Source: Rickettsiales bacterium (GTDB lineage: Bacteria > Pseudomonadota > Alphaproteobacteria > Rickettsiales > UBA1997). From it: a stretch of 64,000 nt of DNA. Under the pieces are notes generated by a model, which ran no database searches, was not told the DNA's origin, and worked only from the letters and a program-made list of their open reading frames with translations. A program made the translations under genes and the position numbers. The stretch's first letter is position 1, and each line of letters begins with the position of its first letter. The stretch covers positions 68,921 through 132,920 of the forward strand of contig JBMSJJ010000003.1 of the NCBI GenBank assembly GCA_049418765.1, read 5' to 3'. Shown here in pieces: positions 852-63,114 of the stretch.

Positions 852-1052
852 CTAACCCAAAAATATAATTTTATTAGAATTTTTGGGCACAATAGCATCA
901 AGGGAAATCGGATGAACCGCTGGTGAAGGCTTATCGACGCCATCGGACTTTATTTCTTTTAAATAATTTTTATCCTTTGGATTAATATTAAGATCAAATT
1001 TGTTTTGATAAATCCAATAACTTGGCAAGGTTGAATCTATAACACTTGTCAC
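852..1052 (-). CDS. hypothetical protein fragment (3' piece of the split gene)
   Basis: 66-aa ORF with a GTG start overlapping the upstream TGA (GTGA). The frame stays open upstream through the homopolymer at 1070-1077. Confidence 0.3.
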   Translation of the reverse strand: MTSVIDSTLPSYWIYQNKFDLNINPKDKNYLKEIKSDGVDKPSPAVHPISLDAIVPKNSNKIIFLG

Positions 1053-1939
1053 TTTAATTTCATCATCAATTTTTTTTGTGCTTTAGCTTGTTCTTGCTCA
1101 AATTTTTTTTCCGCTTCAATACGAATTAACTCTTGCCGTTTTTTTTGATTAATTTCCAATGGCGATTCTCCATACGAATATATTGGATTCAATGCCATTT
1201 TTAAAGGACCAAACTCCATTTCACAATCTCGCGGAGCTCCTGGATGTTGGGGTTTATAACCTTTGACCACATCATCAATTTGAGTTTTAATTCTTTCAAT
1301 TTCTCGATGATAAATTGGACTATTTTCTGGAGAAGCGGTTTTTGGAAATTCTTCAATTGGAAATTCTTCAACGGTTTTTTCTTCATAAGATCTATAAACT
1401 TGAGTTGGAGCTAAAAATTCTTGTGGTAAAATAGTTAAATCATCGGCCGATATATTTTGAGTATTTTTCTCACCGAAATAACTTCTGGCATATCCTGCAA
1501 ATTTTTTAATTGGCTTTCTGATTTTAGATAAAGACCATGAACCAAAAGTAATTATTTTTGATGGATTTGTAATCTTATCCTTATTTGGCTTTTCTGCCGA
1601 AACTATTCGGCCGTAGCTATCGGTGGATTTAAGATTTTGAGCAAATTTCTTAAATATTTTCTTTAATTTTTCTTCCCCACCACCTGCTTTAACCGATTCT
1701 TTACTCACCTCTTCACACATTTCTTCAACAGTATTAGTTAATTCTTCGATAACATTTTCTAATCTTTCTTGCCTCAAATTCGCCGATTTTTTTGCTAATT
1801 TATAATTTAACAAAGGCAAAATTGGTACAATCGAACCAACCACTGCGGTAATCGCAAAATTTACCGACTCAGACAAAGATGAAAATCTTGAAAAACTTTT
1901 TTCAGTTGTCGATAATAAAGCCCCCGAAAAATATGACAT
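1049..1939 (-). CDS. hypothetical protein (largest intact piece of the split gene above)
   Basis: 296-aa ORF with 79 further in-frame sense codons upstream (to 2176) that lack any ATG/GTG/TTG. Hydrophobic segments plus a K/E-rich coiled-coil-like C-terminus. Confidence 0.5.
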   Translation of the reverse strand: MSYFSGALLSTTEKSFSRFSSLSESVNFAITAVVGSIVPILPLLNYKLAKKSANLRQERLENVIEELTNTVEEMCEEVSKESVKAGGGEEKLKKIFKKFAQNLKSTDSYGRIVSAEKPNKDKITNPSKIITFGSWSLSKIRKPIKKFAGYARSYFGEKNTQNISADDLTILPQEFLAPTQVYRSYEEKTVEEFPIEEFPKTASPENSPIYHREIERIKTQIDDVVKGYKPQHPGAPRDCEMEFGPLKMALNPIYSYGESPLEINQKKRQELIRIEAEKKFEQEQAKAQKKLMMKLK

Positions 1940-2468
1940 GATTCGATAAATTCCGGATTTATCTTTGGTTTGATGACTTGAAAATTTAGTTGTGGAACCA
2001 AATTCTTCCTCAAAATCCTTTTTTAACTCTTTTAGCGCTGATTGTAATTTATTAGCAAAATGTGAAGATAAATGACCAATATTACCAATATTTCTTTTAG
2101 CCTGCGACTCTGCAATCGAGCTCGCCGAGGTAACGCCAACCGCACAAGCAATTCCAGCAATTGGCGTTAAAAAAATTCAACAATTCTTGCAAACTTTCTT
2201 GATAAAATCTTTTAAAAATATTGACCACATTTTCTTGAAAACCATCGCCTAAAAAGGCTGTTCAAGATTTTGCATCAATTCGCCGTCAGAGCTGGCTCCT
2301 AATCCTCTTAGAAAATCTTGTTTTATAATTTTTGAATCAGTTGTTGGGAATCCGCAGGATTTCATATAAAATATAGTTATTGGATTTTTAACTATATTTT
2401 ATATTTCATATTTTTTATATTAATAAATATATTAGTTATTTTTTTAATATAAATTTATTGTTTCATTT

Positions 2469-5303: not shown

Positions 5304-5419
5304 AATTTATAAATTTTTAATTTTGAAAATTCACTTAAAAAATTGGTTATTAAATTTTACACTAACCAAAATTATTTGCAACCTATGATAAAATTGAGAA
5401 GAAAGATTTGAAGGAAATA

Positions 5420-5544: not shown

Positions 5545-7620
5545 TCAAATATTTTCTTTAGAGCGTAAATAATTGGCAAGTAAAGCTAATATATAAGCCA
5601 ATGCAATAACATAAAGTAGCTTATGATAACCATATAACATTGAACCATATTCCAACATTCCTCCAATCATTGCCCCAATCATATTATAACCAAATCCCAA
5701 GGCAGATTTCTTTTCCAATGAAAATGTTTGCGAAAAAATTAAACTTGCAAATAACATTGGCGAAAAGCTCACCAAGCAAGATAATAAGTATTTTAAAAAC
5801 CCATCATAATTGCTAAAAAAACTAATTGGAATAGCAATTGAAACCATCAATGAAATTGCCATCATAAAATATAAATTTCGCAATCTAAATTTAATTTTTA
5901 ATTTGATTATTATTGTTGAAATTAAAGCCGTTAATAAAATAGCAAGAATTACTAAAAAATTTACATCCCAAGTTGAGCCAAAAAGCAATTGAAAATTAAT
6001 TATATTTTTAGTTTCAAGCAACATAAATCCAATGCCCAGAAACAGCATATCATATGGTCTTGAATTATTTTTATAATTTGCTTTTTGCTCTTTATTTAAA
6101 TGCAAAAATAAAAATAATACCAACAATAAAATAATTTCAAAAACAACAATTTTTATATAGTTATTAGGAAATGATGGTTTTTTTAAATATAAAAATGGCC
6201 AATTATCGGTTGGAAAAAAAATTTCCGAAGATTCTTTGATAGACTTTTTTGATGTTATCGAATTAGAAATTTCAATGTTTTTAAAGTCTTTTAACTTATA
6301 GCCATTTGCAATAATGGTGAAATTTTTATTTTGATATTGAGTTACTATCGATTGCTGATTAAAAATTTCTTCTAAAATACCCGAAATTTTATCCACAATC
6401 CAATCTTGACGATAATAATTATAAAGCACAATCATGCCGTTTTCAGACAAATGTTCCTTAGCCTTAAGCAATGATTCCTTTGTATATAAATAACTTTCAA
6501 GACGAGTATTCGCTTGAGAAGATGCTAGGGTTAAAGAATCAGTAAGGGCAAAAATTATTAGGTCATATTTTTTTTGATTATTTTCTAAATAATTTCTACC
6601 GTCATTAATATTTATTTTAAGTCTTGGATCTTGGTAAGGCTTATCCAAATGATATTTAAGACCTGATTCATAAATTCTTTGATCAATTTCTACGGCATCG
6701 ACATTTTTAACATTATTTTTTAGGGCATAACTCGCATCATTTCCCATTCCAGATCCTATAATCAAAACATTTTCATATTGTGGGTTTTTAAAAAATTTGT
6801 AAGGAAAACCATACAAAATATCATGATTACTACTGAATTTTTTAGGAACAGCTTGGTGACAGCTTTTATTTACAAATAAATCTACTGAGGTTTGACTTTC
6901 CTGAATGACAATTTTATAATATTTTGTCCAAAAAATTTTATTATAACCAGATTCGATTACCCAAAAACCAAAAACACCAAAAATCATTAAAAACAATTTG
7001 TTATTTCCTTTTTTGCAGAATCGAAATTTGATTTCATCGCTAAAATAAGCTATTAACATCCATGTTAAATTAATAACGATTATCCAAAAAACAATTCCGG
7101 TTTCAAAAAATGATAAAATTGTAAAAAATAATACTCCAAATATACTGCCAGACAAATCAAATAAATAAGCATCGATACTCTTCTTAGATTTATTAAATTC
7201 AATTCCTAACATTTGCCCAAGCGGGTAAAATAAAAAGGCTATATAAATAAAAATAATTATAGTCAAAACCGCATGATTATTATTTAAAAAACTTTTATAC
7301 AAACTAGATTGATACATCACCATATCCATGGCTTCGAAATCAAAAATAATCATAGATGAGCCAGCAATAATTTGAATTACAATCAAAAACGGGAAATAAT
7401 TAAACAGGTTTTTCTTTTTATAAAACAAACAACCCAAACCAATTCCAAAAAAACATGCCATTAAAATTATATTGGAAAAAAAAGCTAAAGAAACAATCTC
7501 AGCCGACAAATACCTTATGGTTGCGAACTCGGTAAATAAAATTAAAAAACTAATTAGAAAAATTTGTAAATGATTTTTACTAAAGAGTTCAAGTTTAAAA
7601 ATATTAAGCATAAAAAACAA
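5545..7620 (-). CDS. polytopic membrane protein with embedded spermidine synthase-like (class I methyltransferase fold) domain
   Basis: 691 aa. Many hydrophobic helices flank VLIIGSGMGNDA...VDAVEIDQRI...PRLKININDGRNYL...YDLIIFALTDS, which matches the aminopropyltransferase motif layout. Confidence 0.75.
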   Translation of the reverse strand: MFFMLNIFKLELFSKNHLQIFLISFLILFTEFATIRYLSAEIVSLAFFSNIILMACFFGIGLGCLFYKKKNLFNYFPFLIVIQIIAGSSMIIFDFEAMDMVMYQSSLYKSFLNNNHAVLTIIIFIYIAFLFYPLGQMLGIEFNKSKKSIDAYLFDLSGSIFGVLFFTILSFFETGIVFWIIVINLTWMLIAYFSDEIKFRFCKKGNNKLFLMIFGVFGFWVIESGYNKIFWTKYYKIVIQESQTSVDLFVNKSCHQAVPKKFSSNHDILYGFPYKFFKNPQYENVLIIGSGMGNDASYALKNNVKNVDAVEIDQRIYESGLKYHLDKPYQDPRLKININDGRNYLENNQKKYDLIIFALTDSLTLASSQANTRLESYLYTKESLLKAKEHLSENGMIVLYNYYRQDWIVDKISGILEEIFNQQSIVTQYQNKNFTIIANGYKLKDFKNIEISNSITSKKSIKESSEIFFPTDNWPFLYLKKPSFPNNYIKIVVFEIILLLVLFLFLHLNKEQKANYKNNSRPYDMLFLGIGFMLLETKNIINFQLLFGSTWDVNFLVILAILLTALISTIIIKLKIKFRLRNLYFMMAISLMVSIAIPISFFSNYDGFLKYLLSCLVSFSPMLFASLIFSQTFSLEKKSALGFGYNMIGAMIGGMLEYGSMLYGYHKLLYVIALAYILALLANYLRSKENI

Positions 7621-10295: not shown

Positions 10296-10937
10296 ATGAC
10301 TGACATCCCAAAACTTGTCTCTGGCTTTCGCTCTTTTAAAGCAACGACTTTTCAAAGAAAACGCGATATTATTCGCCATCTAATTGAACAAGAACAAAAG
10401 CCAACTACCTTAGTAATTTCCTCATGTGATTTACAAATCTCACCTGCCGAAATTTTTTCAGCCAATCCGGGAGAATTTTTTATCTTAAACAATATTGGCG
10501 GTATGGTGCCAAAATACAAAACTCAAGGGATTAGCGGTATTTTATCGGCTTTAGAATACGCAGTTATCAATCTTGAAGTGGAAACAATTTTGGTTCTTAA
10601 TAATGCTCATTGCACCAGCACTAAACTTATAATGTCCGATGATTTTGTGGCTTTTAAAAGTAAAATGTCAGAAACCATGAAAATATGGCTTTCAATTGCA
10701 TCGGAAGCTCGTGATGTTGTTAAACAAGAGATGCCCAAGCATAGCATAGAGGAGCAAGAAACGGCTTTTGAAAAAGAAAGCTTGGTAATTTCCTTAAACA
10801 ACCTCTTGACCTACCCTTATATCAAAGAAAAAGTCGGAAAAAATAAATTAAAAATTTTAGGCTGGCAATTTGATGTGGAAACTGGAGACATTTCGGCATT
10901 TAATCCAGCCACAGGAGTATTTGAAATTATTAATTAG
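10296..10937 (+). CDS. beta-class carbonic anhydrase homologue with non-canonical metal-site residues
   Basis: The fold signature EYAVINLEVETILVL is present. Canonical CSDSR reads SCDLQ and canonical GHxxCG reads NNAHCT. Confidence 0.7.
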   Translation: MTDIPKLVSGFRSFKATTFQRKRDIIRHLIEQEQKPTTLVISSCDLQISPAEIFSANPGEFFILNNIGGMVPKYKTQGISGILSALEYAVINLEVETILVLNNAHCTSTKLIMSDDFVAFKSKMSETMKIWLSIASEARDVVKQEMPKHSIEEQETAFEKESLVISLNNLLTYPYIKEKVGKNKLKILGWQFDVETGDISAFNPATGVFEIIN

Positions 10938-17532: not shown

Positions 17533-17844
17533 TTAAGGATAGGATCGAGATAATCCTTCATTTTTAACTTTTTCAATATCCCGCACTGATGTTGAATTTA
17601 ATGGAGCTTTTTCGCTTAAGGATGAAGATGTTGCTGAACAAGAGCTTGATGATTTTTCATTGCTTTTTGGACTTTGTAAAGTTTCATTTAAAGAATTTGG
17701 ATCTGAATTGCCTGGAAAAAAAACTTCTTCGTTTAATTCAATTGCAAATGCCTGATCAGCTAGACCCATTTCATCATTAGCCTGACTCCCTGAATCTGAA
17801 TTGTTTGTATTGGCAACATATTCGCCTTTTCCAAGATTTTTCAT
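17533..17844 (-). CDS. small acidic Ser-rich hypothetical protein
   Basis: 103-aa ORF whose ATG (17844..17842) directly abuts the lpdA stop codon (17847..17845). Low-complexity composition, no motif. Confidence 0.35.
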   Translation of the reverse strand: MKNLGKGEYVANTNNSDSGSQANDEMGLADQAFAIELNEEVFFPGNSDPNSLNETLQSPKSNEKSSSSCSATSSSLSEKAPLNSTSVRDIEKVKNEGLSRSYP

Positions 17845-21394: not shown

Positions 21395-21398
21395 AATT

Positions 21399-24252: not shown

Positions 24253-24535
24253 AACTAAAATATGATCTTTAAAATTTAAAAAATTAAAATTCTAACTTCA
24301 TATTTTTATCTCAAAAATATTTTTTTATAATTTTATTTAAAGATTGTTTTAGAATAAACTTTAAATTTATTTTTAGCAGGTAGGCTTGTGTTGTTAATTG
24401 AAAATTTGGGCGATAAATTTTCACCCTCCCGATCTGAGATTTTTTTAAATATTGTGAAATAATTTCATTTTTTTTAAGTTTAGAATAACATTTTTTGTGC
24501 TTATTTTATCAAAAACTCAAAAGCTCAACTTTCAA

Positions 24536-49238: not shown

Positions 49239-49587
49239 TGCAAACGCATTTAAACAAGCGCCTTTTAATTTTTTTATAAATTGATAAGTTTATAGCTTCT
49301 TTCTTAATATAAAATCTGCAAAACCTCATGATGATAGCAAGACAAACATTACAATTTGTTTTTTATTTATAAGAGATTTTCCCAAAAGAAACTCAGCAAA
49401 AGGATCAATTTCTTAGTTTTATATTTTTACATAGACCATCAAAATTCAATAAATCCAAAAATAAATAATTTAAAGACAATATAAATATTTAGTTAAATAG
49501 TAATTTATTTAAATAATTTTTAATACTTGTTAATTTATTTTTATTATAATTTGTTATTTTATATTATGAATTAATATAAAATAACAA

Positions 49588-51225
49588 ATGTTCGATTTAA
49601 ATCAAAAAAAGAAATCTCTGAAGCTGATTTTTTCAATCTAATTAGGGAAAATAAAACAGATGAATTGTCTAAAATTATTGAATCAAATCCTGATTTAATT
49701 GATGCGGTAGATAATGAAACTAAATTGGGGGCAATATTTTTTGCTATTAAATTTAATAAAATTGATTGTTTAAAATTATTATTAGAAATTGAGGATTGCC
49801 TACTCGATTCTAAAAACAACAAAAATCATAATCCAATCTTTTATGCGATTAGCGAAGATAATGCCGAAGCTGTTAAGGCAATATTAGAAATCGATTTAAG
49901 CGAATTAAGTCGAGATCACGAAACTGATAACATTAATCCATTATTATTTGCCGTAAGCAATTCAAAACCAATGAGCCTAGAGGTATTACTAAGTTTTTGC
50001 AAAGATATAGATTTATCCAAGCAACTAAATTCTGAAAATGATAAAAATATTTTTTTTAAAGCCATAAAAAAATATTTTGAATTTGAATATGATAAAATCA
50101 ATCCCAAACCTTTAATCATTTTAAATCAACTCTATAAAAAAATTTTTGATAGCGATACCGAACTTACTGAAAATCAACGCGATAATATCAAGGTTTATTT
50201 TGAAAATTTTATGCTAATAAATTTGTCAGTTATAGGAGATTTGGGAAGTAAAGAAAAATTTTTAAGAAAATTGCTTGTTAAGGAGATTTTTCAATCAGAG
50301 AGCTCAGATAGTTTTTTACAATCACTGCAATCAGAGATAAACCCTATTATTAATAGTATTAAAAACCATTTTTAGCTAAAGATAAGAAGCTTTATATTTT
50401 TGATAGCGACTTAACTGACCACTCATCATTTTTTATTTTTCATACAGATTTAGACAATAAAATTGAGGCCATTTCTTATATTGATGGAAGCCAAGATATA
50501 TCCAATCAAAATTCTGATGGCTATGTATATGGAGCTAAAACTTTTAGATTAAAAGAAAAAATAAATTTTGATCATAATTTACTTGAAGATTTTATGGATC
50601 AGACTAATAGAAAAAATGCTTATTATTTGCGACAAAATCTTTTAAATTTTGAAATTAATGGACAAAAACTCAGTGATTTAACTCAAGAAGAGTCGGTTTT
50701 AACAAGAAATCAGAAATGGGGCAATTGCACCTTTAAATCAAATATGCTTTTGTTAAAATTTTTAGCAGAGAAAAGAATTGGCGATGGCTCACAAGAAATT
50801 ATTGAAAATAAATATAAGGAATTAAAACCCAACTTAAGATTCAAGCTTTTAAAAATTTACATAAATTAAAAAATTCTCTGGATACAGAGAGTGTTTTAGA
50901 TAATTTTTTAGCAAAACAAATTGATGACATACTACTAAAATCTAAGGCCAGATTATTAGAAAAAACTGAAGCAAAAACCTCAGATTATGAATTGAGAATT
51001 TTAAAAGCCATTGATGGATCAACCTCTCCTAGAGTTGGACAAAAAAGAATTATTGCGGATGATTTATCAACGCCAATATCAAAAAAATATTTATATTTAT
51101 TTATGGATTCATTCGATGCGGATAATTTTATATCACCACAAACTGAAATTAAAACTCAAATCGGAGCTGCGCAACATCAGAAATTAATTCAAAACGATCC
51201 AACTTCAACCATTTTAAGATTTTAG
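49588..51225 (+). pseudogene. ankyrin-repeat effector-like gene split over four frames
   Basis: ATG 49588 with stop at 49639-49641. Frame 0 is open 49575-50375, frame 2 is open 50363-50869, and frame 1 is open 50818-51225. The first two junctions coincide with A/T runs; the third overlap (50818-50869) contains A/T runs but is not localised. Confidence 0.55.
49665..50375 (+). CDS. ankyrin-repeat protein (largest intact piece of a split gene)
   Basis: Three ANK-like units (ETKLGAIFFAIKFNKIDCLKLLLE, NHNPIFYAISEDNAEAVKAILE, NINPLLFAVSNSKPMSLEVLLS). The frame is open back to 49575 with ANK-cap-like sequence but no canonical start codon. Confidence 0.65.
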   Translation: MSKIIESNPDLIDAVDNETKLGAIFFAIKFNKIDCLKLLLEIEDCLLDSKNNKNHNPIFYAISEDNAEAVKAILEIDLSELSRDHETDNINPLLFAVSNSKPMSLEVLLSFCKDIDLSKQLNSENDKNIFFKAIKKYFEFEYDKINPKPLIILNQLYKKIFDSDTELTENQRDNIKVYFENFMLINLSVIGDLGSKEKFLRKLLVKEIFQSESSDSFLQSLQSEINPIINSIKNHF

Positions 51226-51314
51226 AAAAAAAAGCAAATATAAGTTAATATTTATTTTTACTTTCTAAAACAAGTCTCTTAATTTAATTTTTTTAAAAAT
51301 TACTCCATCTATTG

Positions 51315-51848
51315 TTATAATTCTCTATGAGAATTATTAGTATTCAAAACTGGATAAACCCTGCAAAGTAAAGGTGTTATGCTAGGATTTGAAAATGTTT
51401 TTGGAAACTCGTCTTGTAAATTCGCAGCCTCCTTATAGATTGGAGAAAAATTTGCCTTAAACGATAGTTTTCCTTTGTCATCAATTTTAACTTCTCTAAT
51501 ATTGCCAAAATAAAAACCCGTCTGTGTATATGATTCTTGATCGACAATGTGCCTCCCAATATCATCAAAAGATTTTTTATATTGAAGATATATTGGCGAA
51601 TCTTTTCCGCTACATTTCTCAATTAATTCAAGTTTTTTTGTCATTAATTCACTATATTCAGATGATTCAAAAAATTTTTTTGCCTCAATTTTAATATCAT
51701 CCTTTTCAATACCAAATAATTTAGAAAATTCCTTATATGGTATTATTGGTAATGACATTGAATCTACATCTATAACTGTTATCTGATTATTTAATATAAC
51801 TATATTATTTGGATTATAAATAAGGTCAGTGATCCCAACTCCAAGCAT
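51315..51848 (-). CDS. hypothetical protein
   Basis: 177-aa ORF overlapping the 3' end of the upstream ORF by 23 nt. No family recognised. Confidence 0.45.
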   Translation of the reverse strand: MLGVGITDLIYNPNNIVILNNQITVIDVDSMSLPIIPYKEFSKLFGIEKDDIKIEAKKFFESSEYSELMTKKLELIEKCSGKDSPIYLQYKKSFDDIGRHIVDQESYTQTGFYFGNIREVKIDDKGKLSFKANFSPIYKEAANLQDEFPKTFSNPSITPLLCRVYPVLNTNNSHREL

Positions 51849-52275
51849 CGAAGCCTTTCTTTAAAAAACTTTGCCAGTTTTCTTCAACATAACCATATCT
51901 TTGATATTTACCTAAAATCTCAACATTTTGCTCTTCTCGCATTTGACCAACAATATCTGTTAAATATTCATCTGGATTCGAGCCATCAGGCTTAATTTTG
52001 ACAACTATTTTTTCTAACTCTGGAACATTTTCACTTACTAAGCCAAATTTTCTTAAAATATCATCATGAACCCATGCCACCTCTCCTCCCGTTGCCTTTG
52101 TTACTTTACCATTACATATTTTTGAATCCCTAATTTCGTTTCCAGAAAAAATGCAATCGTTAGACCTTAAAATTTCATTAGCGGGAGATGTGTGTTTTTT
52201 ATCGGCAACTATCAAACCCGCTAAAGATGTTGATGCTAAAAGCAAATAATATATGTTTTTGGCAAGATATGGCAT
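51826..52275 (-). CDS. hypothetical secreted protein
   Basis: 149 aa with a signal-peptide-like N-terminus (NIYYLLLASTSLAGLIVA). No family recognised. Confidence 0.5.
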   Translation of the reverse strand: MPYLAKNIYYLLLASTSLAGLIVADKKHTSPANEILRSNDCIFSGNEIRDSKICNGKVTKATGGEVAWVHDDILRKFGLVSENVPELEKIVVKIKPDGSNPDEYLTDIVGQMREEQNVEILGKYQRYGYVEENWQSFLKKGFDAWSWDH

Positions 52276-52334
52276 AATTTTAACTTATATTTATCAATTT
52301 TTTATTTAATTTTTATAATAAAATAAATATCTCT

Positions 52335-55154
52335 TTAATTTTGTGGTGATGAAATTTGTTCAGAATTATCATCGGTTGTTTCTTCGCCAGTTTCCGCTTC
52401 ATCGACATCTTTATTGCCGGTATGAGCTATTCTAGCCACAGAAACCACAGTTTCGTCTTTAGTTTTAATTAAGGTTACCCCTTGGGTATTGCGACCACTA
52501 ATACGAACGGTACCTATTTCGGTGCGAATTAAAGTGCCCTTGTCGGTGATAATCATCACTTGATCCTTGCTTTCAACTGGGAAACTTGCCACAACCAATC
52601 CATTTCGTTTTGAGGTAATGATATTGGTTATACCAGATCCACCTCGATTTGTAATGCGATATTCGTAGGCCGAAGAGCGTTTTCCAAAACCATTTGCGGT
52701 GATGGTTAAAATAAATTCTTCATCAACTGCCATTTTTTCAATGGTTTTTTGATCAAGCTCTGCCCCTTTAATTTGTGGAATTTCCATAGGCTGAGCCAAT
52801 AAATCTTCTGGCGGATTTTCGGCAAGCATTTTGTTATAAATCAAAGCATCACGCAATGCTAGTCTTTGATCTAAATCGATTTTTAAATATTTATCTTTAA
52901 TTTCAGAATCTTCTTTGGCATGTTTAATGATTGACAAAGCAATAACTTTATTGCCTGCATCCAATTTAATTCCTCGCACACCTGTTGAATTACGGCTTTG
53001 GAATACGCGAAGCTTTTCAACTGGGAAGCGAATGCATTTGCCATCTTTGGTTGAAAGTAAAATATCATCTTTTTCAGAGCATAGAGCCACTCCAACAAGG
53101 GCTTCATCGCCCTCGAGTTTCATGGCAATTTTGCCACTCGAACGAATATCAACGAATTGATCCATTGAATTACGACGGATATCGCCATTTGAAGTAGCAA
53201 AAACAATACTTAAATCTTTCCAGCTTTCTTCATTTTCAGGCAATGCTAAAATAGTGCTGATTTTTTCATCACCTTCAAGTGGAAGTAAATTTACTAAAGC
53301 ACGACCACGAGCTTGCGGTGTTCCAAGTGGAAGCTTATAAGTCTTAAGCTTATAACACTTACCTTTGCTAGAAAAGAATAAAATTGGGGTGTGAGTATTA
53401 GTAGCAAAAATATCGGTAGCGATATCTTCTTCACGCACATCCATAGCACTTCGACCCTTACCGCCTCGGCGTTGAGTTCGATATGAAGACAAGGCAACCC
53501 TTTTAATATAGCCATTCATAGTGGCAACTACCACCATCTCTTCTTTTGGAATTAAATCCTCAATGTCCACTTCAAATTCAGAATCTTCAATGGTTGATTT
53601 ACGAGGTGTTGCAAATTCATCTTTAATGGCGATTAATTCTTTTTTAACCAATGCCATCATTTTTAATTTATCCGACAATAATTCAAGATAGCCAGAAATT
53701 TCATTTGCTAAAGCCTTAAGCTCATCGGTGATTTTTTCCATTTCTAAGCCCGTTAATCTTGCAAGCCTCATTTCAAGTATTGCTCTAGCTTGAGCCTCGG
53801 TGAAATAAAATTTACCATCTTTGATAACATTGCCCTTATCTTGAACCAATTTAATCATGGCTTCAACTATGCCTGCAGGCCAACTGCGAGCAAGAAGTTT
53901 TTCACGGGCTTCGTTAACATCTTTTGATTTTTTGATTAAATCGACAATCTCATCAATATTGGCAACGGCGACAGCCAAGCCAATTAAAATATGGGATTTA
54001 TCTCTTGCCTTATTTAATAAAAAATTGGTTCTTCTAGTGGTAACATTAAAACGGAAATCGACGAAAACCCTAATTACCTCAAGCAAATTCATTAATTTTG
54101 GCTGTCCGTAATTTAAGGCAAGCATATTAACGCTAAAATTACATTGTAATTCGGTGAAGCTGTAAAGCTGATTAATAATTACCTCTTCCATCGCATCTTT
54201 ACGCAATTCAATCACAACCCTAATGCCATCGCGGTCAGATTCGTCTCGCAAATCAGTAATGCCTTCAATCTTTTTTTCTTTTACCAATTCGGCAATTTTT
54301 TCAACTAATTTTGCCTTATTAACTTGATAAGGAATTTCGGTAATAACAATTGAATTTTTGCCCCCTGATTTTTTTTCGATATTATGGCGTCCCCTCATTA
54401 CAACCGAACCTCTACCCGTGCGAGATGCCGAATCGTGACCCGAACGTCCTAAAATTATACCGCCAGTAGGAAAATCGGGTCCAGGAATGATTTTGATAAG
54501 CTCATCAACCGTGACTTCGTTATTATCGATAAATGCCAAACAGCCATCGATCATTTCGCCTAAATTATGTGGCGGAATATTTGTTGCCATTCCAACCGCA
54601 ATTCCACCCGAACCATTAACCAATAAATTTGGAAAGCGAGCTGGCAAAACCTTTGGCTCTTTTTCGTTGCCATCATAATTTGGCACAAAATCAACAGTGT
54701 CTTTATCAAGATCATCAAGCATTGTGTGCGAAATCTTTTCAAGCCTAGACTCAGTATAACGCATGGCCGCAGGAGGATCATCATCAATCGAACCAAAATT
54801 TCCTTGGCCATCAATTAGTGGCACTCTCATTGAGAAATCTTGCGCCATTCTAACCAAAGATTCATAGATCGCCGAATCGCCATGTGGGTGATATTTACCC
54901 ATAACTTCACCGACAATTCTAGCAGATTTTTTAAATGGCTTATTATAATCATAGCTACCCTCATGCATTGCATATAAAATGCGTCTATGCACAGGTTTTA
55001 AGCCATCGCAAGCATCGGGAATGGCGCGTGAAACTATGACGCTCATGGCATAATCAAGGTAAGATTTACGCATTTCGCCAACTAGCGAAACTGGCTGAAT
55101 ATCTTTGCCAGTAGCAGGCACAATAATATTTGGTATGTTGTTGTCGTTTGTCAT
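52335..55154 (-). CDS. gyrA: DNA gyrase subunit A
   Basis: 939 aa. [19 protein letters not shown] (catalytic Tyr), [11 protein letters not shown] (QRDR), C-terminal beta-pinwheel repeats and an acidic tail. Confidence 0.97.
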
Positions 55155-55372
55155 TATAAATTTGGTGAGTATTGAACGATAATTTATCGCTTAAAATTAA
55201 TTAATGATGATAACTTAACTTGCTCTTAAGTTCAAGTAAAAATTTTAAAATAAGACCATAAATATAAATTATTTTTTATAAAAAAATACAGAATTAATAA
55301 ATTATTTGTCAAATGTTATAAATTTATATAGATTTTTAGAATTTGTAGTAAAATTTTTAAAAAAATCAAATT

Positions 55373-56401
55373 ATGCTAGAAATTACTCCTGATAACACCG
55401 TACAAAGCTCTTCCCTAAAAATTGACAAACAAATTTCTGAATTAAAAAAATTAACAAAGACAATAAAAGAGACATTTCAGGCTCGCATTTTTTTAAATTA
55501 AATCAACTAATCTTGGCCAGCGACTTAAATTGCGAAGAGATAAATCAAGCAATGATTGATTATTTTAAAGAAACCGAAATTCTCAATGAAGCCGACAAAA
55601 AATTACTAAAAATAATGCTTTTTAATTATTGGGTACCACCCCAAGATTTTCCTGATTTTGAATTTGAATATTCCAAAAATCAATTTTATGGAACATCAAA
55701 TATTAAAGTAGCAAATTATAAGAAATTAAAAAATCCAGAAAATCTTTATGGATTTAAAATTTCAGTTGAAGAAATTTTGAGTTATAATGAAATTTTTAAA
55801 GCACAACAAAAATATCTCAAGTCCGGAAGATTCTTATAAAATTTCCTTAAATTCCGATGAGTTTTGCTTTCTTTCCTCTTTTGGCTTAGTTAGGTTTTTT
55901 GATGCAATTAAATTTTCGCAATCTTCAATGGTCGATGAATCATTATTTAAAAATCAACAATTCCGTAACTTTCTCGACGAAATCAATCGTGATTATGTTC
56001 TAATGCAAAATCAAAATAATAAGGATTTGTTAGAATCCACAATGAATGGCTCACTTACAATTAAATATTTATTAACCGATCAGGAATTAAAAAGTTCTTT
56101 TGAAATTACTCGAATATCGCTTTCAAATTACACCCCTAGAACATCGCAAGATATATCAACGAGGGCACATGAAACTATTTTTTTAACACCTAGTGGAGTA
56201 TTTTTAGAAAATCAACAACCGCAAAATTTATGCGATAATTTAAAAAGTTTATACACATCATGCTTGGCATTTTTTGGATGTATTTCGGCATTGAAAACGC
56301 ATGAAATAAAAAGTGACGATCATTCTTTTCACCCCAGAAATATTGTCTCCTCAGCAATCTATGTTCCTGCGAATTATTCAAGAGATTTGGCGATAGATTA
56401 A
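55373..56401 (+). pseudogene. lineage-specific gene split over three frames
   Basis: ATG 55373 gives 42 codons and stops at 55499-55501. The adjacent frame is open through the T7 run (55488-55494) into ORF 55513..55839. The third piece, 55787..56401, returns to the first frame, with a junction window of 55781-55839. Confidence 0.5.
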
Positions 56402-56405
56402 ATAT

Positions 56406-57308
56406 TTACAATGTTGCAATAGCATCAACAATATTAACAAATTTAAAATCATATCCGTTTTCCTGAGCCTTTTGCGGAGCAATTTTTTGCGAGGATAAGA
56501 GCAATTCTTCGCCCATTTGGCCAAAAATAGTTTTTACTACGAATTTTGGCATATGAAAAAAACATGGTCGATTAAATTTTTTCGCCAAAACCCCAGAAAA
56601 TTCTGCATTCGAGCACGGATTTGGCGAAGAAAGATTAATGGCACCTTTGATGGTGGCGTTATTAATTATCAAATTAATAATTCCAATTACATCATCTAAA
56701 TGAATCCAGCTCATAATTTGCTTACCATCGCCAATATTACCACCCAAACCCATTTTAAATGGCGGAGTCAATTTTTTAATAATACCACCACCCTGCCCGA
56801 TTACAACTGAAGTTCGAAGCAAAACAATGCGAGTTAAATCTGAAACTCTCTGCGTTTCAGCTTCCCAAGCCTTGCAAAGATTTTGTGAAAATAAATTTTG
56901 AGTGGTTGGCGAAGAATTTTCACTGAAAATTGTGGCTTCAGAAGTTCCGTAAAAACCAATTGCCGAACCACTAATAAAAAGCTTAGGCGGGGTTTTGGTT
57001 GTGGAAATTTTATCAACAATTTTTTTGGTGGTATTAATACGACTTTCATAAATTTCTTGACGATTTCTTGTGTTCCAATTCACTGAAATCGGCGCTCCCG
57101 CCAAATTGATAATAATGTCAAAATCAAATTCCAAATCAACAAAATCATTGATATAATGCAAATTTTTATTTTCAGATTTTAAATTTTTCTTTCGAGTCAA
57201 CGCAAAAATTTGATGACCATCTTGTAATAATTCATCGACTAATCTTTTACCGATAAAACCAGTAGCACCAGTGATTAAAAATTTGCATTTTTGTTGTAAA
57301 AGTTTCAT
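56406..57308 (-). CDS. TIGR01777/YfcH-type NAD-dependent epimerase family protein (with DUF1731-like C-terminus)
   Basis: ITGATGFIGKRLVDEL Rossmann motif. The ~300 aa length and C-terminal pattern are typical of the SDR39U1/YfcH family. Confidence 0.85.
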   Translation of the reverse strand: MKLLQQKCKFLITGATGFIGKRLVDELLQDGHQIFALTRKKNLKSENKNLHYINDFVDLEFDFDIIINLAGAPISVNWNTRNRQEIYESRINTTKKIVDKISTTKTPPKLFISGSAIGFYGTSEATIFSENSSPTTQNLFSQNLCKAWEAETQRVSDLTRIVLLRTSVVIGQGGGIIKKLTPPFKMGLGGNIGDGKQIMSWIHLDDVIGIINLIINNATIKGAINLSSPNPCSNAEFSGVLAKKFNRPCFFHMPKFVVKTIFGQMGEELLLSSQKIAPQKAQENGYDFKFVNIVDAIATL

Positions 57309-57335
57309 TATATTAAAAAAATTAAATTTAAAATT

Positions 57336-58070
57336 ATGGCAAATTATCTTATACTGTCCGCATCTAGCGAAATTGGCGAATTAACAGCTAAAAATTTAGT
57401 TGAAAATAATCATAAAATTTTTATCACCGCCAGAAATTCCGACAAATTAGAGTCTCTCAAATCTAAATTTAATTGCAACGGAAATCTTCTTGATTGCTCA
57501 AATTTCAGTGAAGTTGACAAAACTTTTGAACAAGCAATCCAAGAGCTTGGCACTATTGATGGCGTCGCCTGCTTTGCCGGTTCTGTTTTACTTAAACCCG
57601 CTCACCTCACCAGTTTTGAAGAATACCAACATACAATGAATTCAAATATTGCACCCGCCTTTGCCTGCGTTCGAAGCGCTGGTAAATATTTCAAAAATGG
57701 CGGTAGTGTAGTTTTATTGGCGTCAGCAGTTGCGATGCATGGACTTGCCAATCACGAAGCTATTGCCAGTGCTAAAGGTGCAATTGTTGCCCTTGCCAAA
57801 TCGGCTTCATCAAGCTATGCTTTAAAAAATATTCGCTTTAATGTTGTGGCTCCGGGGTTAACGCAAACAAAATTAACTCAAAAAATTACCGAAAACGAAA
57901 CTAGCTTAAATTACTCCAAGGCAATGCATGCTCTGGCTCGCATCGGCAAGGCTCAAGATGTTGCCAATGCAGTAAATTTTTTACTCGATACCAACAATGA
58001 TTTTATCACTGGACAGGTCTTGGCGGTTGACGGTGGACTTAGCTCGGTAATGCCAAAAATAAAAATTTAA
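57336..58070 (+). CDS. short-chain dehydrogenase/reductase family protein, atypical active site
   Basis: SDR layout (RFNVVAPGL, ITGQVLAVDGG). The expected YxxxK reads IASAK and the Gly motif reads SASSEIG. Confidence 0.75.
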   Translation: MANYLILSASSEIGELTAKNLVENNHKIFITARNSDKLESLKSKFNCNGNLLDCSNFSEVDKTFEQAIQELGTIDGVACFAGSVLLKPAHLTSFEEYQHTMNSNIAPAFACVRSAGKYFKNGGSVVLLASAVAMHGLANHEAIASAKGAIVALAKSASSSYALKNIRFNVVAPGLTQTKLTQKITENETSLNYSKAMHALARIGKAQDVANAVNFLLDTNNDFITGQVLAVDGGLSSVMPKIKI

Positions 58071-58071
58071 T

Positions 58072-59631
58072 ATGCGTAATTTAATTTATATCTTGGGTGA
58101 TCAATTAAATTTAAATATTTCTTCCTTACAAAATTTTGACAAAAAACATGATGCCATTTTAATGACCGAAATTTGGGACGAAACCAATTATGTCAAGCAT
58201 CACAAAAAGAAATTAGTTTTGATTTTATCAGCAATGCGTGAATTTGCTGATTTACTTCGTCAAAATAATTTTAAAGTTTTTTACAAAAAATTAGATGATA
58301 CCAACAATTTGGGTAGCTTTGATAAAGAGCTTGAATATTTTATCGACAAACAAAAACCGCAAAAAATTATCGTCACCGAACCTTCAGAATATAGGGTTTT
58401 GCAAATTTTTAATAATTATTTTTCCAGAAAGAAAATTAATTATGAAATTCGCAATGATGAAAGATTTATATGCTCACACCATGAATTTGCTAGCTATGCC
58501 AAAGATAAAAAAAATTTACTACTCGAAAATTTTTACCATTTAATGCGTCAAAAAACTAAAATTTTGATGGAAGAAAATAAAAATACCAAAAAAAATTCTG
58601 GCACTTTAAAACCAGTTGGCGGTAAATGGAATTACGATAAAGAAAATCGCGGAACCATGCCAAATGATGTTCGCCAGCCAAAGATTCAACATATTAAAAT
58701 TAACAAAAATACCCAAGATGTAATTGATTTAGTCAAAAATAATTTTGCAAAAAATTTTGGTTCACTTGAAAATTTTAACTTGGCAACCAATCATTTAGAG
58801 GCCGAAAATCAATTTGCAGATTTTATTAAAAATCGTTTAATTAATTTTGGAATTTATCAAGACGCCATGCGTGAAGATGTTGATTTTGGCTTTCATAGCG
58901 TGATTTCAATGTATATCAATATTGGCTTGCTTGACCCACTTGATTGCGCTAAAAAAGTTGAGGCTGAATATCATCTAGGAAATTGCGATATTGCGAGTGC
59001 CGAAGGATTTATTCGCCAAATTATTGGCTGGAGAGAATATATTCGCGGAATCTATTGGCACTTTATGCCAAAATACGCAAAATTAAATTATTTCAATCAC
59101 AAAAGAAACTTACCAGAATTTTATTGGAACGAAGACGAAACTGCAATGAATTGCTTGAAAACCGCCATCAAACACACTCGACTTCACGCATACAGCCATC
59201 ATATTCAACGCCTAATGATTACAGGCAATTTTGCTCTTCTTGCAGAAATCGACCCAGATCAAGTTGAGGAGTGGTATTTGGCGGTTTACGCCGATGCTTT
59301 TGAATGGGTAGAAATGCCAAATACTCGAGGCATGGCGCTATTTGCCGATGGGGGAATTGTTGCTTCAAAACCTTATTGCTCGAGTGGAAATTATATTAAC
59401 AAAATGTCAAATTTTTGCAAAAACTGTCAATATGATGTCAAATTAACAACTGGTGACAAGGCCTGCCCTTTTAATTATTTATACTGGAATTTTTTAATCA
59501 AAAACCAAGAATTACTAAAAAATAATGGTCGGCTTTTTTATCCATATGCTAATTTAAAACGCAAAACCGAAAAGGAAATATTGGCAATTAAAGAATCGGC
59601 ACAAAAATTTTTTAAGAAAATAAAAATTTAA
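58072..59631 (+). CDS. cryptochrome/photolyase family protein of the FeS-BCP (CryB/PhrB-like, COG3046) type
   Basis: 519 aa. N-terminus LIYILGDQLN. The C-terminal Cys cluster YCSSGNYINKMSNFCKNCQYD...ACPFNYLYWNF is consistent with a 4Fe-4S site. Confidence 0.85.
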   Translation: MRNLIYILGDQLNLNISSLQNFDKKHDAILMTEIWDETNYVKHHKKKLVLILSAMREFADLLRQNNFKVFYKKLDDTNNLGSFDKELEYFIDKQKPQKIIVTEPSEYRVLQIFNNYFSRKKINYEIRNDERFICSHHEFASYAKDKKNLLLENFYHLMRQKTKILMEENKNTKKNSGTLKPVGGKWNYDKENRGTMPNDVRQPKIQHIKINKNTQDVIDLVKNNFAKNFGSLENFNLATNHLEAENQFADFIKNRLINFGIYQDAMREDVDFGFHSVISMYINIGLLDPLDCAKKVEAEYHLGNCDIASAEGFIRQIIGWREYIRGIYWHFMPKYAKLNYFNHKRNLPEFYWNEDETAMNCLKTAIKHTRLHAYSHHIQRLMITGNFALLAEIDPDQVEEWYLAVYADAFEWVEMPNTRGMALFADGGIVASKPYCSSGNYINKMSNFCKNCQYDVKLTTGDKACPFNYLYWNFLIKNQELLKNNGRLFYPYANLKRKTEKEILAIKESAQKFFKKIKI

Positions 59632-59638
59632 TTTTGAT

Positions 59639-60391
59639 ATGCTAACTAAACAGCAACAGGATTTATATATTCGCAACATTATTTTACCAGAAATTGGTGA
59701 AGCTGGTCAAGAAAAATTACTTAAGGCAAAAATTTTAGTAATTGGTGCTGGCGGTCTTGGCTCTAGCGCTTTACAATATCTAACTTGCGCAGGCATTGGC
59801 AATATTGGCATCATCGATGATGACAAAGTGGAGATTTCAAATTTGCAACGCCAAATTATTCATAATTTTGATAATCTTGGGCAAGAAAAAATCCTTAGCG
59901 CCAAAGAAAAATTAGAAAAATTATCCCCTGATTTAAAAATAAATTTAATTAATCAACGAGCCAATTATGATTTATTATCAAAGGAAGTTAATGATTACGA
60001 TATTGTAATGGATTGCACCGATAATTTTCCGACTCGATTTATAATCAATCAAGTTTGTTTTGAGCAAAAAAAACCTCTAATTTTTGGGGCGGTAAAAGGA
60101 TTTCTTGGGCAGTTGTCGGTATTTAAATCTTACCTTGAAAATCAACCTTGCTATGCATGTTTTAATCCAAATATTGTCGATGAAAATTTTCAGTTACCAC
60201 TTCATGAAAAAGGTATTTTAGGAGCAGTAGCCGGCAGTATTGGAGCTATGCAGGCGATTTATGCCATAAAAGAAATTTTAAAAATCGATAATGATATTTC
60301 TGGGCAGATTTTATTTTACGATTTTTTAAAAAATAATTTTCGTAAAACCAAATTAAGTAAAAATAAAAATTGCAAAATTTGCGGAAATTAA
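59639..60391 (+). CDS. HesA/MoeB/ThiF family adenylyltransferase
   Basis: RNIILPEIGEAGQEKL, GAGGLGS, NLQRQ, CxxC pairs (CYACF and CKICG). Confidence 0.88.
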   Translation: MLTKQQQDLYIRNIILPEIGEAGQEKLLKAKILVIGAGGLGSSALQYLTCAGIGNIGIIDDDKVEISNLQRQIIHNFDNLGQEKILSAKEKLEKLSPDLKINLINQRANYDLLSKEVNDYDIVMDCTDNFPTRFIINQVCFEQKKPLIFGAVKGFLGQLSVFKSYLENQPCYACFNPNIVDENFQLPLHEKGILGAVAGSIGAMQAIYAIKEILKIDNDISGQILFYDFLKNNFRKTKLSKNKNCKICGN

Positions 60392-60439
60392 AAATTATAA
60401 CTAAATAATTTAATTAGTTTTGTAAAAATTAATTAAATT

Positions 60440-60874
60440 ATGCCACAAAAATCATATTTTCTTATTAGTGCAAGTGATATTGCTAAAAATAACACTCAAT
60501 TAATTCTGGAACAAAATATAATTCTTCAAAAATTATTTCCCTATGAAAACCCCGAAGATTTGCGCTCAAAATTATCACAAATACTCATCGATGATTTTAA
60601 AGAAGAAAACCCAATCTTAGTCGCAAAATGCCTCTTAGAACAAATTGACTCAGATTTTATTAAGAGATTTTCTGATGAGTCAAGTTTTATTGATGAATTT
60701 AAATTTCAATATCTCCAAAATCAAAGATTAATTCAAAAAGATTTGGAAGATTACCAAATCGCATCAACCGCTCCAAGCTCACAAAATTTTTTCAAGGAAG
60801 TTGCGCTTGGGTCAATTGGTGAACTTGTAGAAGATGCTCGAAACATTTTCAAAACAACAATGGAAGATCTCTAA
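60440..60874 (+). CDS. small acidic hypothetical protein
   Basis: 144-aa ORF, 15 nt upstream of the secreted protein gene on the same strand. No motif recognised. Confidence 0.45.
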   Translation: MPQKSYFLISASDIAKNNTQLILEQNIILQKLFPYENPEDLRSKLSQILIDDFKEENPILVAKCLLEQIDSDFIKRFSDESSFIDEFKFQYLQNQRLIQKDLEDYQIASTAPSSQNFFKEVALGSIGELVEDARNIFKTTMEDL

Positions 60875-60889
60875 ACTAATGGTCAAAAT

Positions 60890-62599
60890 ATGCCATTATC
60901 AACCTCTTCTCTTTCGGTTTTACTCGGATTGGCTTTTATGACCAAATCTATTTCGGCTCAAAGCGATTCTTTAATTTTAAGAGATTCCACTTTACCAAGA
61001 AATGTAACATTAGGCGCTAAATCTAGCGCACCAACAACATCTAATTTTGCAACACCAGCGCCAAAATTTGAATATAAAAAATATGTTGAAAATTTGAACA
61101 GCAAAATTTCATTAATTCGCCAAGAATTATTAACAAAAAATCATGGTGAACTTCCAGAATTTACAGAGGTAATGACTAGATTAAAATCTTCAAATACTGA
61201 ATTATTTGATGAAAGTGGTAAATTAATTGCAGATTCTAATTCGATATTTGGAGAATTTTATGAAGGTTTAGATTTATCAAAAATGAAAATTAAATATGAG
61301 GATTTTAAATTTTTTAACAACGATAATGCAAAATTTAAAGATGTTAATTTTTCAGGCTCAGAAATCGGCAATGAAACGCCTCCGACTTCAATAAATATTG
61401 GAGTAAATATTTTAAGCGGAAATCTGAGTAATTGTGTATTTAAAAATTTTCCAAGATTGGCAATTGGTGAAGACATATTTTACAAGTATAATATAGCTAT
61501 GGATCGCAATGCCAATTCAGGAATTGGTAAAATTGATAAATCGGGTAACATCGAAATTTCATCAATCACAAATCCTGAACTTTATAATCAACAAAAGGAA
61601 ATATTTGATGGCTTAAAAATAGATTTAACCGATACAAAATTTTTAGGAATTTTTTATAATTCCAATTTTGCTTCTGGCGATTACAAAACTGCAAATTTTG
61701 CTGACGCCTCATTTCTTCATCTTGAAGAAATGTCTTTTAGCAAAAAAATACCTTTTGGGGCAAGAACACAAAATGCCGATTTATCGAAAACTAAATTTGG
61801 CTCTTTTGAAGCGCAAGAAACAAATCAAGAATATCAAGTAATTTCTTCTGAAGTAAAAAGCGTTGGCGCCTCAGAGCTAGCCTTATCCAAGGACATGCTG
61901 GATCTAACTGAAAGTCGCTATATTTTACAAAGTAAAATCGATGAATTATCCAAGAATAAACCAATTTATATTCGAGTAAATTTTGGAAATGCCACTAATG
62001 ATGATAAGGCGCAAAGTTTTAAGGAATTATTTAAAATATCTAAGGATGTGGACGAAAAAACTAAGAAAGAATTGATTGATAGGGTTAAAGAAGTAATAAA
62101 ACATGAATTTGAAAAATTTAATATAATTGCGGTTGATGAAGATGCTAAAATCCCCGATGATGCAATTGTTAAGAATTTAACTATTTATGCTCAAGATGGC
62201 AAAGGCTCTGCTTCACAATTTGCAGAATTTTTAGATGATCAATCTACAATTATATTTGGTCTTAAACAGCCAAGCAGAGGGTTTGTTGTTAGTCATGAAC
62301 TTGGACATGGCTTAGCCGGATTTGATCATCCCACAGAGATGAGGCAATCGGTTATGGGATATGCAAATTTTTTAAATAAATTAGGAGAGAATGGGGAATT
62401 ATCTTCAACCCCAAAATATATTTTCTTCACCGCCGAAGATAGAAGAACAGTCGGCGAGATAATGAAACAAGTTGGAAGACATGAAATTGCAACCAAAGAT
62501 GATGAAATTTTAGAATATAGCGATTTAACAAAATTGGACACTCGCTCAACCAGCTATTTGGGAGGTAGCGATAAAACCAGAATTTTAAAAAAAGCATAA
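60890..62599 (+). CDS. secreted protein with pentapeptide-like repeats and a C-terminal metzincin-like zinc-protease motif
   Basis: Signal peptide (LSVLLGLAFMTKSISAQS). Repeats such as FKDVNFSGSEI, ANFADASFLHL, ADLSKTKFGSF. HELGHGLAGFDHP at 62294-62332, followed by SVMGY (Met-turn-like). Confidence 0.65.
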   Translation: MPLSTSSLSVLLGLAFMTKSISAQSDSLILRDSTLPRNVTLGAKSSAPTTSNFATPAPKFEYKKYVENLNSKISLIRQELLTKNHGELPEFTEVMTRLKSSNTELFDESGKLIADSNSIFGEFYEGLDLSKMKIKYEDFKFFNNDNAKFKDVNFSGSEIGNETPPTSINIGVNILSGNLSNCVFKNFPRLAIGEDIFYKYNIAMDRNANSGIGKIDKSGNIEISSITNPELYNQQKEIFDGLKIDLTDTKFLGIFYNSNFASGDYKTANFADASFLHLEEMSFSKKIPFGARTQNADLSKTKFGSFEAQETNQEYQVISSEVKSVGASELALSKDMLDLTESRYILQSKIDELSKNKPIYIRVNFGNATNDDKAQSFKELFKISKDVDEKTKKELIDRVKEVIKHEFEKFNIIAVDEDAKIPDDAIVKNLTIYAQDGKGSASQFAEFLDDQSTIIFGLKQPSRGFVVSHELGHGLAGFDHPTEMRQSVMGYANFLNKLGENGELSSTPKYIFFTAEDRRTVGEIMKQVGRHEIATKDDEILEYSDLTKLDTRSTSYLGGSDKTRILKKA

Positions 62600-62632
62600 A
62601 CCGATATTAAAAACTCCCACCGAATTTCCATT

Positions 62633-63114
62633 ATGAAGGCAAGCGATGTAATGCTAACTTGCCTGAAAACGCCATTTCCTAAAGATTGCCTCAAAGATGA
62701 AACTCTCCAAAACTCCACGGCACTTGTAATTTACGACCCTTACGACGAATTTCCAGAGAAAATGTAAAACATATTTTTATATTTGATAAAGGCAAAAATT
62801 TTGTTGAAATTATCGACAAAAATGGCACTTCGCATCGTTTCGAAGTCAATTCAGAAAATTTTAGTGAACAACAACAAAAAATAATTTTTGACCAAGGAAA
62901 AATAACTAGCGAAAGTAAATCTAATGAAGGACTAAAAAACCCAGAAATTGCTGGAATAGTTGCTGGTGCAGTGTTAAGTTTACTGGGTGTAGCTTATGGC
63001 GTCAAAAAATGCTTGAATCAAGAAAGACCAGAAAACATTGCGACTAGTCCAACCCCATCGCCAAGGGCGACCTTTAGATCATTTCAAAATGAAGGGATTG
63101 AATTAGCAGTTTAA
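62633..63114 (+). pseudogene. small TM-anchored protein gene split over two frames
   Basis: ATG 62633 gives 44 codons and stops at 62765-62767. The second frame is open 62701-63114 and encodes a TM helix (IAGIVAGAVLSLLGVAYGV), but has no start codon near its 5' end. Confidence 0.4.

Follow-up and report, generated by a model that had tools for sequence, protein, structure and literature searches.

Five loci in a 64-kb stretch of DNA from a Rickettsiales bacterium (64,000 nucleotides of contig JBMSJJ010000003.1 in assembly GCA_049418765.1; the whole stretch is called the window below) carry ten frame-breaking lesions. The five loci are, in all probability, young pseudogenes that arose by ordinary and recent decay of clade-restricted accessory genes. 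The lesions are real, not artefacts of sequencing or assembly, and the decay is stepwise, parallel, and lineage-specific, with different strains carrying different lesions. The original prediction, made from the window sequence alone, had counted about ten frame switches in five loci and had placed relaxed selection with ongoing pseudogenization among four candidate explanations. All five loci are indeed fragmented where the switches had been seen, and the comparative and population evidence described here supports that candidate.

Ten lesions in five loci

The positions of the lesions were fixed by comparison with relatives, and all coordinates are those of the + strand (Table 1). One edit at each of the ten sites restores five clean open reading frames (ORFs), none of which contains any other stop codon. 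Seven of the ten lesions are changes of ±1 or −2 nt within A/T runs of 5–8 nt; the original prediction had named this type of run correctly but had pinned only five switches to it. The other three lesions are not homopolymer events, being a TTT-to-TT change in locus 2, a GG-to-G change in locus 5, and a 4-nt tandem duplication in locus 3. Deletions account for seven of the nine single-base lesions. The broken genes had also been described as secreted or membrane proteins. This holds for locus 1 (two transmembrane segments), locus 5 (one such segment), and locus 3 (a signal-like N-terminus, judged by eye), whereas inspection of loci 2 and 4 for transmembrane segments and signals gave no membrane or secretion signal.

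Table 1. Positions of the broken loci, their lesions, and two further genes discussed in the text
Feature	Position	Strand	Description
Locus 1	852–2365	−	Clade-restricted protein, two transmembrane segments; 504 codons when mended; three frameshifts plus the in-frame loss of 120 nt
Locus 1, lesion 1	2251–2255	−	A5 (+ strand; T5 in the gene), lacking one base
Locus 1, lesion 2	2169–2175	−	A7, against A9 in L081 (−2)
Locus 1, deletion	2183/2184 junction	−	120 nt (40 codons) lost, in frame
Locus 1, lesion 3	1070–1077	−	T8 (+ strand; A8 in the gene), lacking one base; common to L081
Locus 2	49588–51225	+	N-terminal ankyrin-repeat protein; 546 codons when mended; three frameshifts
Locus 2, lesion 0	49604–49610	+	A7, against A8 in in-frame alleles; six codons past the ATG
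Locus 2, lesion 1	50361–50365	+	A5, against A6 in in-frame alleles (SIKKPFLAKD)
Locus 2, lesion 2	50822–50823	+	TT, against TTT in in-frame alleles
Locus 3	51315–52275	−	Clade-restricted protein, signal-like N-terminus; 318 codons when mended
Locus 3, lesion	51855–51862	−	4-nt tandem duplication, CTTT CTTT on the + strand (AAAG AAAG in the gene); +4 frameshift
Locus 4	55373–56401	+	Fast-evolving protein, family not recognized; 342 codons when mended; two frameshifts
Locus 4, lesion 1	55444–55450	+	A7, against A8 (in frame) in L064
Locus 4, lesion 2	55808–55812	+	A5, against A4 (in frame) in L064
Locus 5	62633–63114	+	Small protein, one transmembrane segment close to the C-terminus; 160 codons when mended; one frameshift
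Locus 5, lesion	62747	+	G in place of GG
Metalloprotease-like gene (comparison gene)	60890–62599	+	Intact, clade-restricted, 569 aa, signal-like N-terminus, HELGHGLAGFDH motif (metzincin-like)
prfB	36434–37529	+	Programmed +1 frameshift site CTT TGA C at 36500–36506

A GyrA query against GTDB genomes returned 80 loci, nearly all of them from metagenome-assembled genomes (MAGs) of lakes and other waters that are labelled Rickettsiales or Alphaproteobacteria. Two relatives should be noted here: L081 (GCA_023256705.1, an NCBI MAG), a strain 99.4–99.9% identical to the window, and L064, an Illumina MAG of a sister lineage with 93.7% DNA identity to window 53347–64000. The comparison with sister genomes, proposed together with the original prediction, found intact homologues, and the sisters are in frame at the lesion sites. 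The mended frames match full-length homologues (160–562 aa) end to end, the locus 3 relative L001 being limited by the end of its contig.

Recurrence of the lesions in relatives and wild populations

The window sequence is carried nearly unchanged by 20 public aquatic metagenome runs from at least 10 studies. For comparison we used Logan contigs, which are made without polishing against protein references; their depths are about 7–35×, except for run X15 (5×). Across eight runs of seven further studies, these contigs show the window lesions as well as the intact housekeeping frames, and L081 likewise has lesions of locus 1 in common with the window. In run X1, a 38-kb contig is identical to the window across 14.3 kb. 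In run X2, which belongs to a separate study, the region corresponding to 49000–63276 differs by 51 substitutions, and gaps are found only in the intergenic stretch before locus 2, so that every lesion of loci 2 to 5 is reproduced. Since unpolished, independent contigs repeat the lesions as well as the intact housekeeping frames, polishing and plain sequencing error are excluded as their source; the proposal that frameshifts had been corrected only in genes with homologues is thereby refuted.

The 5× contig of X15 has a 1-nt deletion in gyrA at 54912, a non-repetitive site. The likeliest source of this deletion is an error, or foreign DNA at a place where conserved gyrA sequences of other organisms pile up. 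Very shallow contigs can therefore contain errors.

Locus 1 belongs to a small family, with only seven protein matches among 5.8 billion and no Pfam family above the cut-off. The family has intact members in P0001 (541 aa, 81% identity, full coverage) and P0004 to P0007 (490–524 aa). The 40 residues deleted from the window gene are present in P0001 and P0002, and P0002 has at its C-terminus the same out-of-frame tail, AQKKLMMKLK, as that following lesion 3. All of locus 1 is reproduced in X1, X3, X6, and X13. Site by site, the window state of lesion 1 is found in these four runs and in L081, while X2 has one extra A there, which joins the first two frames; the window state of lesion 2 together with the deletion (2169–2184) is common to X2, X3, X6, and X13; and at lesion 3 there are no indels relative to the window in X1 to X6 or X13. 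In L081, locus 1 is broken at two of the window's sites, but both the −2 change and the 120-nt deletion are absent, the T9 tract being kept. The decay of locus 1 has therefore gone further in the window lineage.

Beside the 120-nt deletion, at 1977–2178, 11 substitutions relative to L081 are clustered within 200 nt, and eight of the 10 classified substitutions downstream of the deletion are synonymous. Judged from the sequence, the segment appears to be a short tract that recombination imported from an allele that was diverged but functional.

Locus 2 matches Pfam Ank_2 (1.3e-8) and has only 11 protein matches, its intact homologues being P0008 (544 aa, 90% identity) and eight relatives, P0010 to P0017 (545–562 aa). 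The in-frame state of each lesion site is observed elsewhere: that of lesion 0 in L082 and in the sole X5 contig spanning the site, that of lesion 1 in L082, the X5 minor allele, P0008, and P0009, and that of lesion 2 in L082 and the minor alleles of X4 and X5. Within the species-level cluster, at least three differently broken alleles exist. The window type has the three lesions; the L082/L083 type is in frame at all three of these sites and has its own shift at 50610; the third has a 1-nt deletion at 50143 and belongs to a minor strain in X4, X5, and X6.

The surroundings of locus 2 should also be noted. Between the window (49480–51232) and L082 (2134–3883), synonymous divergence (dS) is 0.02 in locus 2, against 0.15 in the flanking secF and 0.26 in the flanking gyrA. 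The secF–gyrA interval of L082 has an additional 341-aa orphan gene between secF and locus 2 and has no locus 3 gene. The interval looks like a recombining variable island.

An AlphaFold model of an intact locus 2 homologue has predicted local distance difference test (pLDDT) values of 85–94 in the ankyrin part and 35–37 around an invariant Cys, and searches with this homologue by Foldseek and against PDB sequences gave ankyrin proteins only. In the family alignment (A1), His286, Asp300, Gln376, and Cys381 are invariant on the C-terminal side of the ankyrin repeats. In our own reading, which we take as a lead only, the order of these residues recalls the clan CE (Ulp1-like) cysteine proteases.

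Locus 3 belongs to a family of only nine clusters among 1.84 billion representatives. The C-terminal half aligns to positions 151–315 of its best match, P0019 (327 aa), and the homologue in L001 is in a single frame up to the contig end, which falls before the gene end. L082 and L083 have no locus 3 gene at this position. The duplication is reproduced, with no indels relative to the window at the site, in X1, X2, X4, X5, X6, and X13. Both lesion states of locus 4 are found in X1 to X6, X13, and X15, and L064 has its own different frameshift near 55542. An intact, distant homologue of locus 4 adjoins gyrA in L003; its identity is 24%, though GyrA is 91% identical there. As for locus 5, the broken allele is found in X1, X2, X4, the X5 major strain, X6, X13, and X15, and the intact allele in L064, X3, and the X5 minor strain. 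Gene decay is thus ongoing in the window lineage and its relatives, as seen from the extra −2 change and 120-nt loss in locus 1, the three alleles of locus 2, and the absence of locus 3 in L082.

Selection on indels and past constraint

About 50 genes other than the five loci are each read in a single frame in the window, as had been claimed for its housekeeping genes. They include sucA, uvrB, recO, miaA, rluD, tsaE, a prepilin peptidase gene, ftsY, lpdA, prfA, metG, ilvD, pheS, dprA, recN, glpX, prfB, pstA, folP, comEC, dnaQ, lpxA, fabZ, ilvBH, serS, rpsT, secF, and gyrA. The full profile length is covered in each gene that clearly matches an NCBIfam or Pfam family; partial matches are limited to comEC and two weakly matched ORFs (10296–10937 and 5545–7620), and the scan left out ORFs 60440–60874 and 63442–63960. 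The sole conserved gene with a frame change is prfB, for which a programmed +1 shift had been predicted, and the frame downstream of its CTT TGA C site spans the full profile. A six-frame reading of the intergenic gaps of the window gave rpsT, rpmG, and a small RHH gene; further broken genes were not evident.

The homopolymers available for slippage are nearly equal in the two classes of sequence. A/T runs of at least 5 nt number 767 in intact coding sequences (CDSs) and 93 in the broken loci (14.3 and 16.5 per kb, respectively), and runs of at least 7 nt occur at 2.6 and 2.7 per kb. Target size is therefore no explanation for the pattern. The broken loci make up 9.5% of the coding bases yet hold all ten lesions (naive P = 6e-11). 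At the level of genes, the hypergeometric P is about 1e-4 to 3e-4 by hand arithmetic, with five broken genes, all among the approximately 11–13 clade-restricted ones, out of 56. When strains are compared over about 55 kb, 1-nt indel variants occur in intergenic DNA, in the five loci, and in other orphan ORFs (25003–25677 and the end of 60890–62599), and ORF 60440–60874 has a compensated indel pair inside its last two codons. Over the same length, conserved CDSs have no indel variants, save the gyrA deletion in the 5× contig of X15. This distribution is the footprint of purifying selection on real mutations.

The lengths of the A/T runs are themselves limited. Intact CDSs contain 416, 212, 96, and 42 runs of 5, 6, 7, and 8 nt, respectively, one run of 9 nt, and none longer, where geometric decay predicts about 37 runs of at least 9 nt (Poisson P of about 5e-15). 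Intergenic DNA has the same cut-off, with no run above 9 nt in the window. The T9 tract of strain L081 is T7 in the window. The original prediction had cited a T8 run within ilvD as an example of a tract borne by an intact gene. The run exists, at 27493–27500, but it falls within the first 30 or so codons of the ORF, an N-terminal extension outside the IlvD profile match, and may lie upstream of the true ilvD start.

Frameshifts had further been said to be confined to lineage-specific genes. All five broken loci are clade-restricted, but several other clade-restricted genes are intact (1–847, 17533–17844, 25003–25677, 33163–34074, and 60890–62599), the first of which is the end of a 730-aa orphan gene that is intact in L081. 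The metalloprotease-like gene, intact in the window, is broken in L064 (7544–9253 of the reverse complement) by the loss of its start codon (ATG to ATA) and a nonsense substitution at Tyr232 (TAT to TAA), and its stop codon is changed from TAA to CAA; the X5 minor strain has an extra G at 62559 within the same gene. The intact 224-aa orphan ORF at 25003–25677 has two 1-nt deletions, at 25220 and 25222, in variant contigs of X2, X4, and X6, and most of it is absent in the X5 variant lacking 24344–25522. It may be another accessory gene in flux.

The long-term ratio of non-synonymous to synonymous divergence (dN/dS) is 0.30, 0.26, 0.40, 0.19, and 0.375 for loci 1 to 5, respectively, compared with 0.009–0.10 for gyrA, sucA, secF, and other neighbouring housekeeping genes. 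Together with the lack of extra stop codons, these values indicate that the five genes were fast-evolving but constrained until recently, and that the lesions are recent. We propose the following course. Constraint on the five accessory genes would recently have lapsed in the species-level population, or their loss would have been favoured. Frameshifts would have arisen by slippage during replication at the numerous short A/T runs of a genome with 32% G+C, and other small indels, such as the 4-nt duplication and the 120-nt deletion, would have added to the damage. The new indels would have stayed unpurged in the five genes, while selection would have removed mutations of the same kinds from the approximately 50 genes in use. 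The products of loci 1 to 5 would then no longer be made or needed.

Several observations weigh against the pseudogene interpretation. The two lesions of locus 4 are conserved in nine geographically separate populations without further decay. A/T runs account for seven of the ten lesions, and conserved lesions in A/T tracts of insect endosymbionts have been read as a sign of rescue by slippage (PMC3017870). The dN/dS of locus 2 against L082 is 0.55, a modest rise based on small counts (14 non-synonymous and six synonymous changes). Loss of expression and absence of tract variation within a clone are points that we infer, and no RNA sequencing runs containing the five loci were found. The evidence comes from one 64-kb window.

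A variant of the same interpretation holds that the losses are non-neutral, that is, that host-interaction genes undergo convergent, selected loss in a widespread, uncultured, aquatic Rickettsiales-like bacterium. This is suggested by the ankyrin gene, inactivated independently on at least three occasions among strains that occur together, and by its neighbours, which are broken or deleted in a lineage-specific manner. We consider selected loss rather unlikely. If it did occur, it could serve escape from recognition by a host or predator or follow a change of host, and the secF–gyrA interval would be a recombining island that shuffles alleles of the locus 2 region (dS of 0.02 against 0.15–0.26 in the flanks).

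The remaining content of the window (G+C of about 32%, four tRNAs) bears on the lifestyle of the organism. A reductive genome had been assumed, and this is only partly borne out. In addition to ilvBHD, glpX, and comEC/dprA, the window encodes type IV pilus parts and a photolyase-related gene; with such genes, this uncultured aquatic lineage is not obviously an extreme reductive endosymbiont.

Two other features of the window were observed. On the minus strand at 20687–22520, an AAA ATPase gene lies next to a gene for a DUF3226 protein, both intact. The ATPase weakly matches RecF, PtuA, and retron-effector ATPases, and the pair may form a two-gene defence-like module. An intergenic segment of 750 nt at 24253–25002 contains nested G+C-rich inverted and direct repeats, CACCCTCCC ... 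GGGAGGGTAAAATTT. The metagenome contig depth reaches 1150 in its repeat core, against a baseline of about 40, which indicates a multi-copy element somewhere in these communities; no second copy is found in the window or the fetched loci, and a variant contig of X5 skips 24344–25522.

Alternative explanations and known systems

Slipped-strand mispairing at hypermutable A/T tracts could turn genes for surface proteins or effectors on and off, so that the five loci would be contingency loci. Phase-variable loci of this kind, with simple-sequence repeats, are known in Haemophilus, Neisseria, and Campylobacter. The window resembles them in that the affected proteins are putative surface or host-interaction proteins, seven lesions lie in A/T runs, one tract (A7/A8) is only six codons past the start of locus 2, and tract lengths vary among strains at a few sites (2251, 49604, 62747, and other tracts of locus 2). 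However, loci 1 and 2 need three corrections each and locus 4 needs two, so that a single switch restores none of them, and repair of locus 3 requires removal of the 4-nt duplication. No locus is broken at hypermutable sites alone: an A5, a TT, a G, or a duplication of only two 4-nt units is always among its lesions. No long repeat tract is present, the window having no A/T run above 9 nt, and only the A7 of locus 2 is near a start codon. The tract states are also mostly stable across populations: those of locus 4, locus 3, and lesion 3 of locus 1 are identical in six to nine populations of different studies. Every alternative tract length sits beside flanking single-nucleotide polymorphisms (SNPs) on its contig, which points to strain alleles and not to products of rapid switching. 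A fully in-frame allele of loci 1, 2, 3, or 4, four of the five genes, was not seen in the species-level cluster. We regard contingency loci, the second of the four candidates, as very unlikely.

Slippage of RNA polymerase at poly(A/T) tracts could put a fraction of the transcripts back in frame and so keep the genes functional. Such rescue, of single indels in long tracts, has been reported in Buchnera and Blochmannia (PMC3017870; PMC5574713). The likeness lies in the AT-rich genome, in frameshifts within A/T homopolymers, some of them in A7–A8 tracts, in frames that are otherwise open, and in the conservation of some lesions, namely those of locus 4, among distant populations. In the endosymbiont study, a gene counts as rescuable only when it has one indel and this falls within a poly(A/T) tract, a long tract is one of at least 9 bp, and tracts of up to 12 bp are cited (PMC3017870); slippage frequency increases exponentially with run length (PMC5574713). 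The tracts at issue here are 1–8 nt long, in a window whose A/T runs do not exceed 9 nt. Several lesions occur per gene, some of them outside homopolymers, and each locus has at least one that is beyond repair by slippage. The affected genes are accessory, not essential, and sister lineages do not share the frameshifts, being in frame at the lesion sites. Rescue of this kind is highly improbable at the five loci.

It could also be supposed that the lesions are homopolymer errors and that homology-guided polishing mended only the genes with homologues. Most lesions do lie in homopolymers. Reference-based tools for mending gene-fragmenting errors exist, and indel errors of long reads likewise fragment ORFs at homopolymers with an apparent bias to genes without references (PMC12007338). 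The X15 contig with its gyrA deletion is a reminder that shallow contigs are not free of errors. Unlike such errors, the present lesions are repeated in the independent, unpolished assemblies of the eight runs, one of them with the long stretch of identity in X1, and follow the pattern expected of selection, occurring in intergenic DNA and accessory genes only. Three lesions lie outside homopolymers, and the nonsense substitution and start-codon loss in L064 affect yet another accessory gene. The probability of an artefact is thus close to negligible. Programmed ribosomal frameshifting at the five loci is rejected, with relatives in frame at every site and no shift site of the prfB type.

With these alternatives weighed, the pseudogene interpretation has practical consequences. 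The fragmented ORFs are biology, not error, and should be annotated as pseudogenes, neither mended nor split into separate genes. They form a clean natural example of how purifying selection sorts indels by gene class at equal homopolymer density. A small set of fast-evolving genes, which code for a protein with ankyrin repeats, for membrane proteins, and for a secreted protein of metalloprotease-like type, is being shed in parallel in wild populations. Ankyrin, membrane, and secreted proteins are the usual candidates for host interaction, and their turnover is a lead to the lifestyle of the organism.

The phenomenon itself is already well known, and it is unusually well documented here because many wild populations can be compared. 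In Rickettsia (R. prowazekii and R. conorii) and other host-associated bacteria, split genes and pseudogenes decay under relaxed selection. The five loci follow this pattern closely: the genome is AT-rich; the damage consists of small frameshifting indels and short deletions, with deletions in excess of insertions; accessory genes are hit while their orthologues in relatives are intact; and different genes are lost in different lineages. They differ from the Rickettsia case in belonging to an uncultured aquatic lineage that is not obviously an extreme reductive endosymbiont, and in that the evidence comes from wild metagenome populations, not from isolate genomes.

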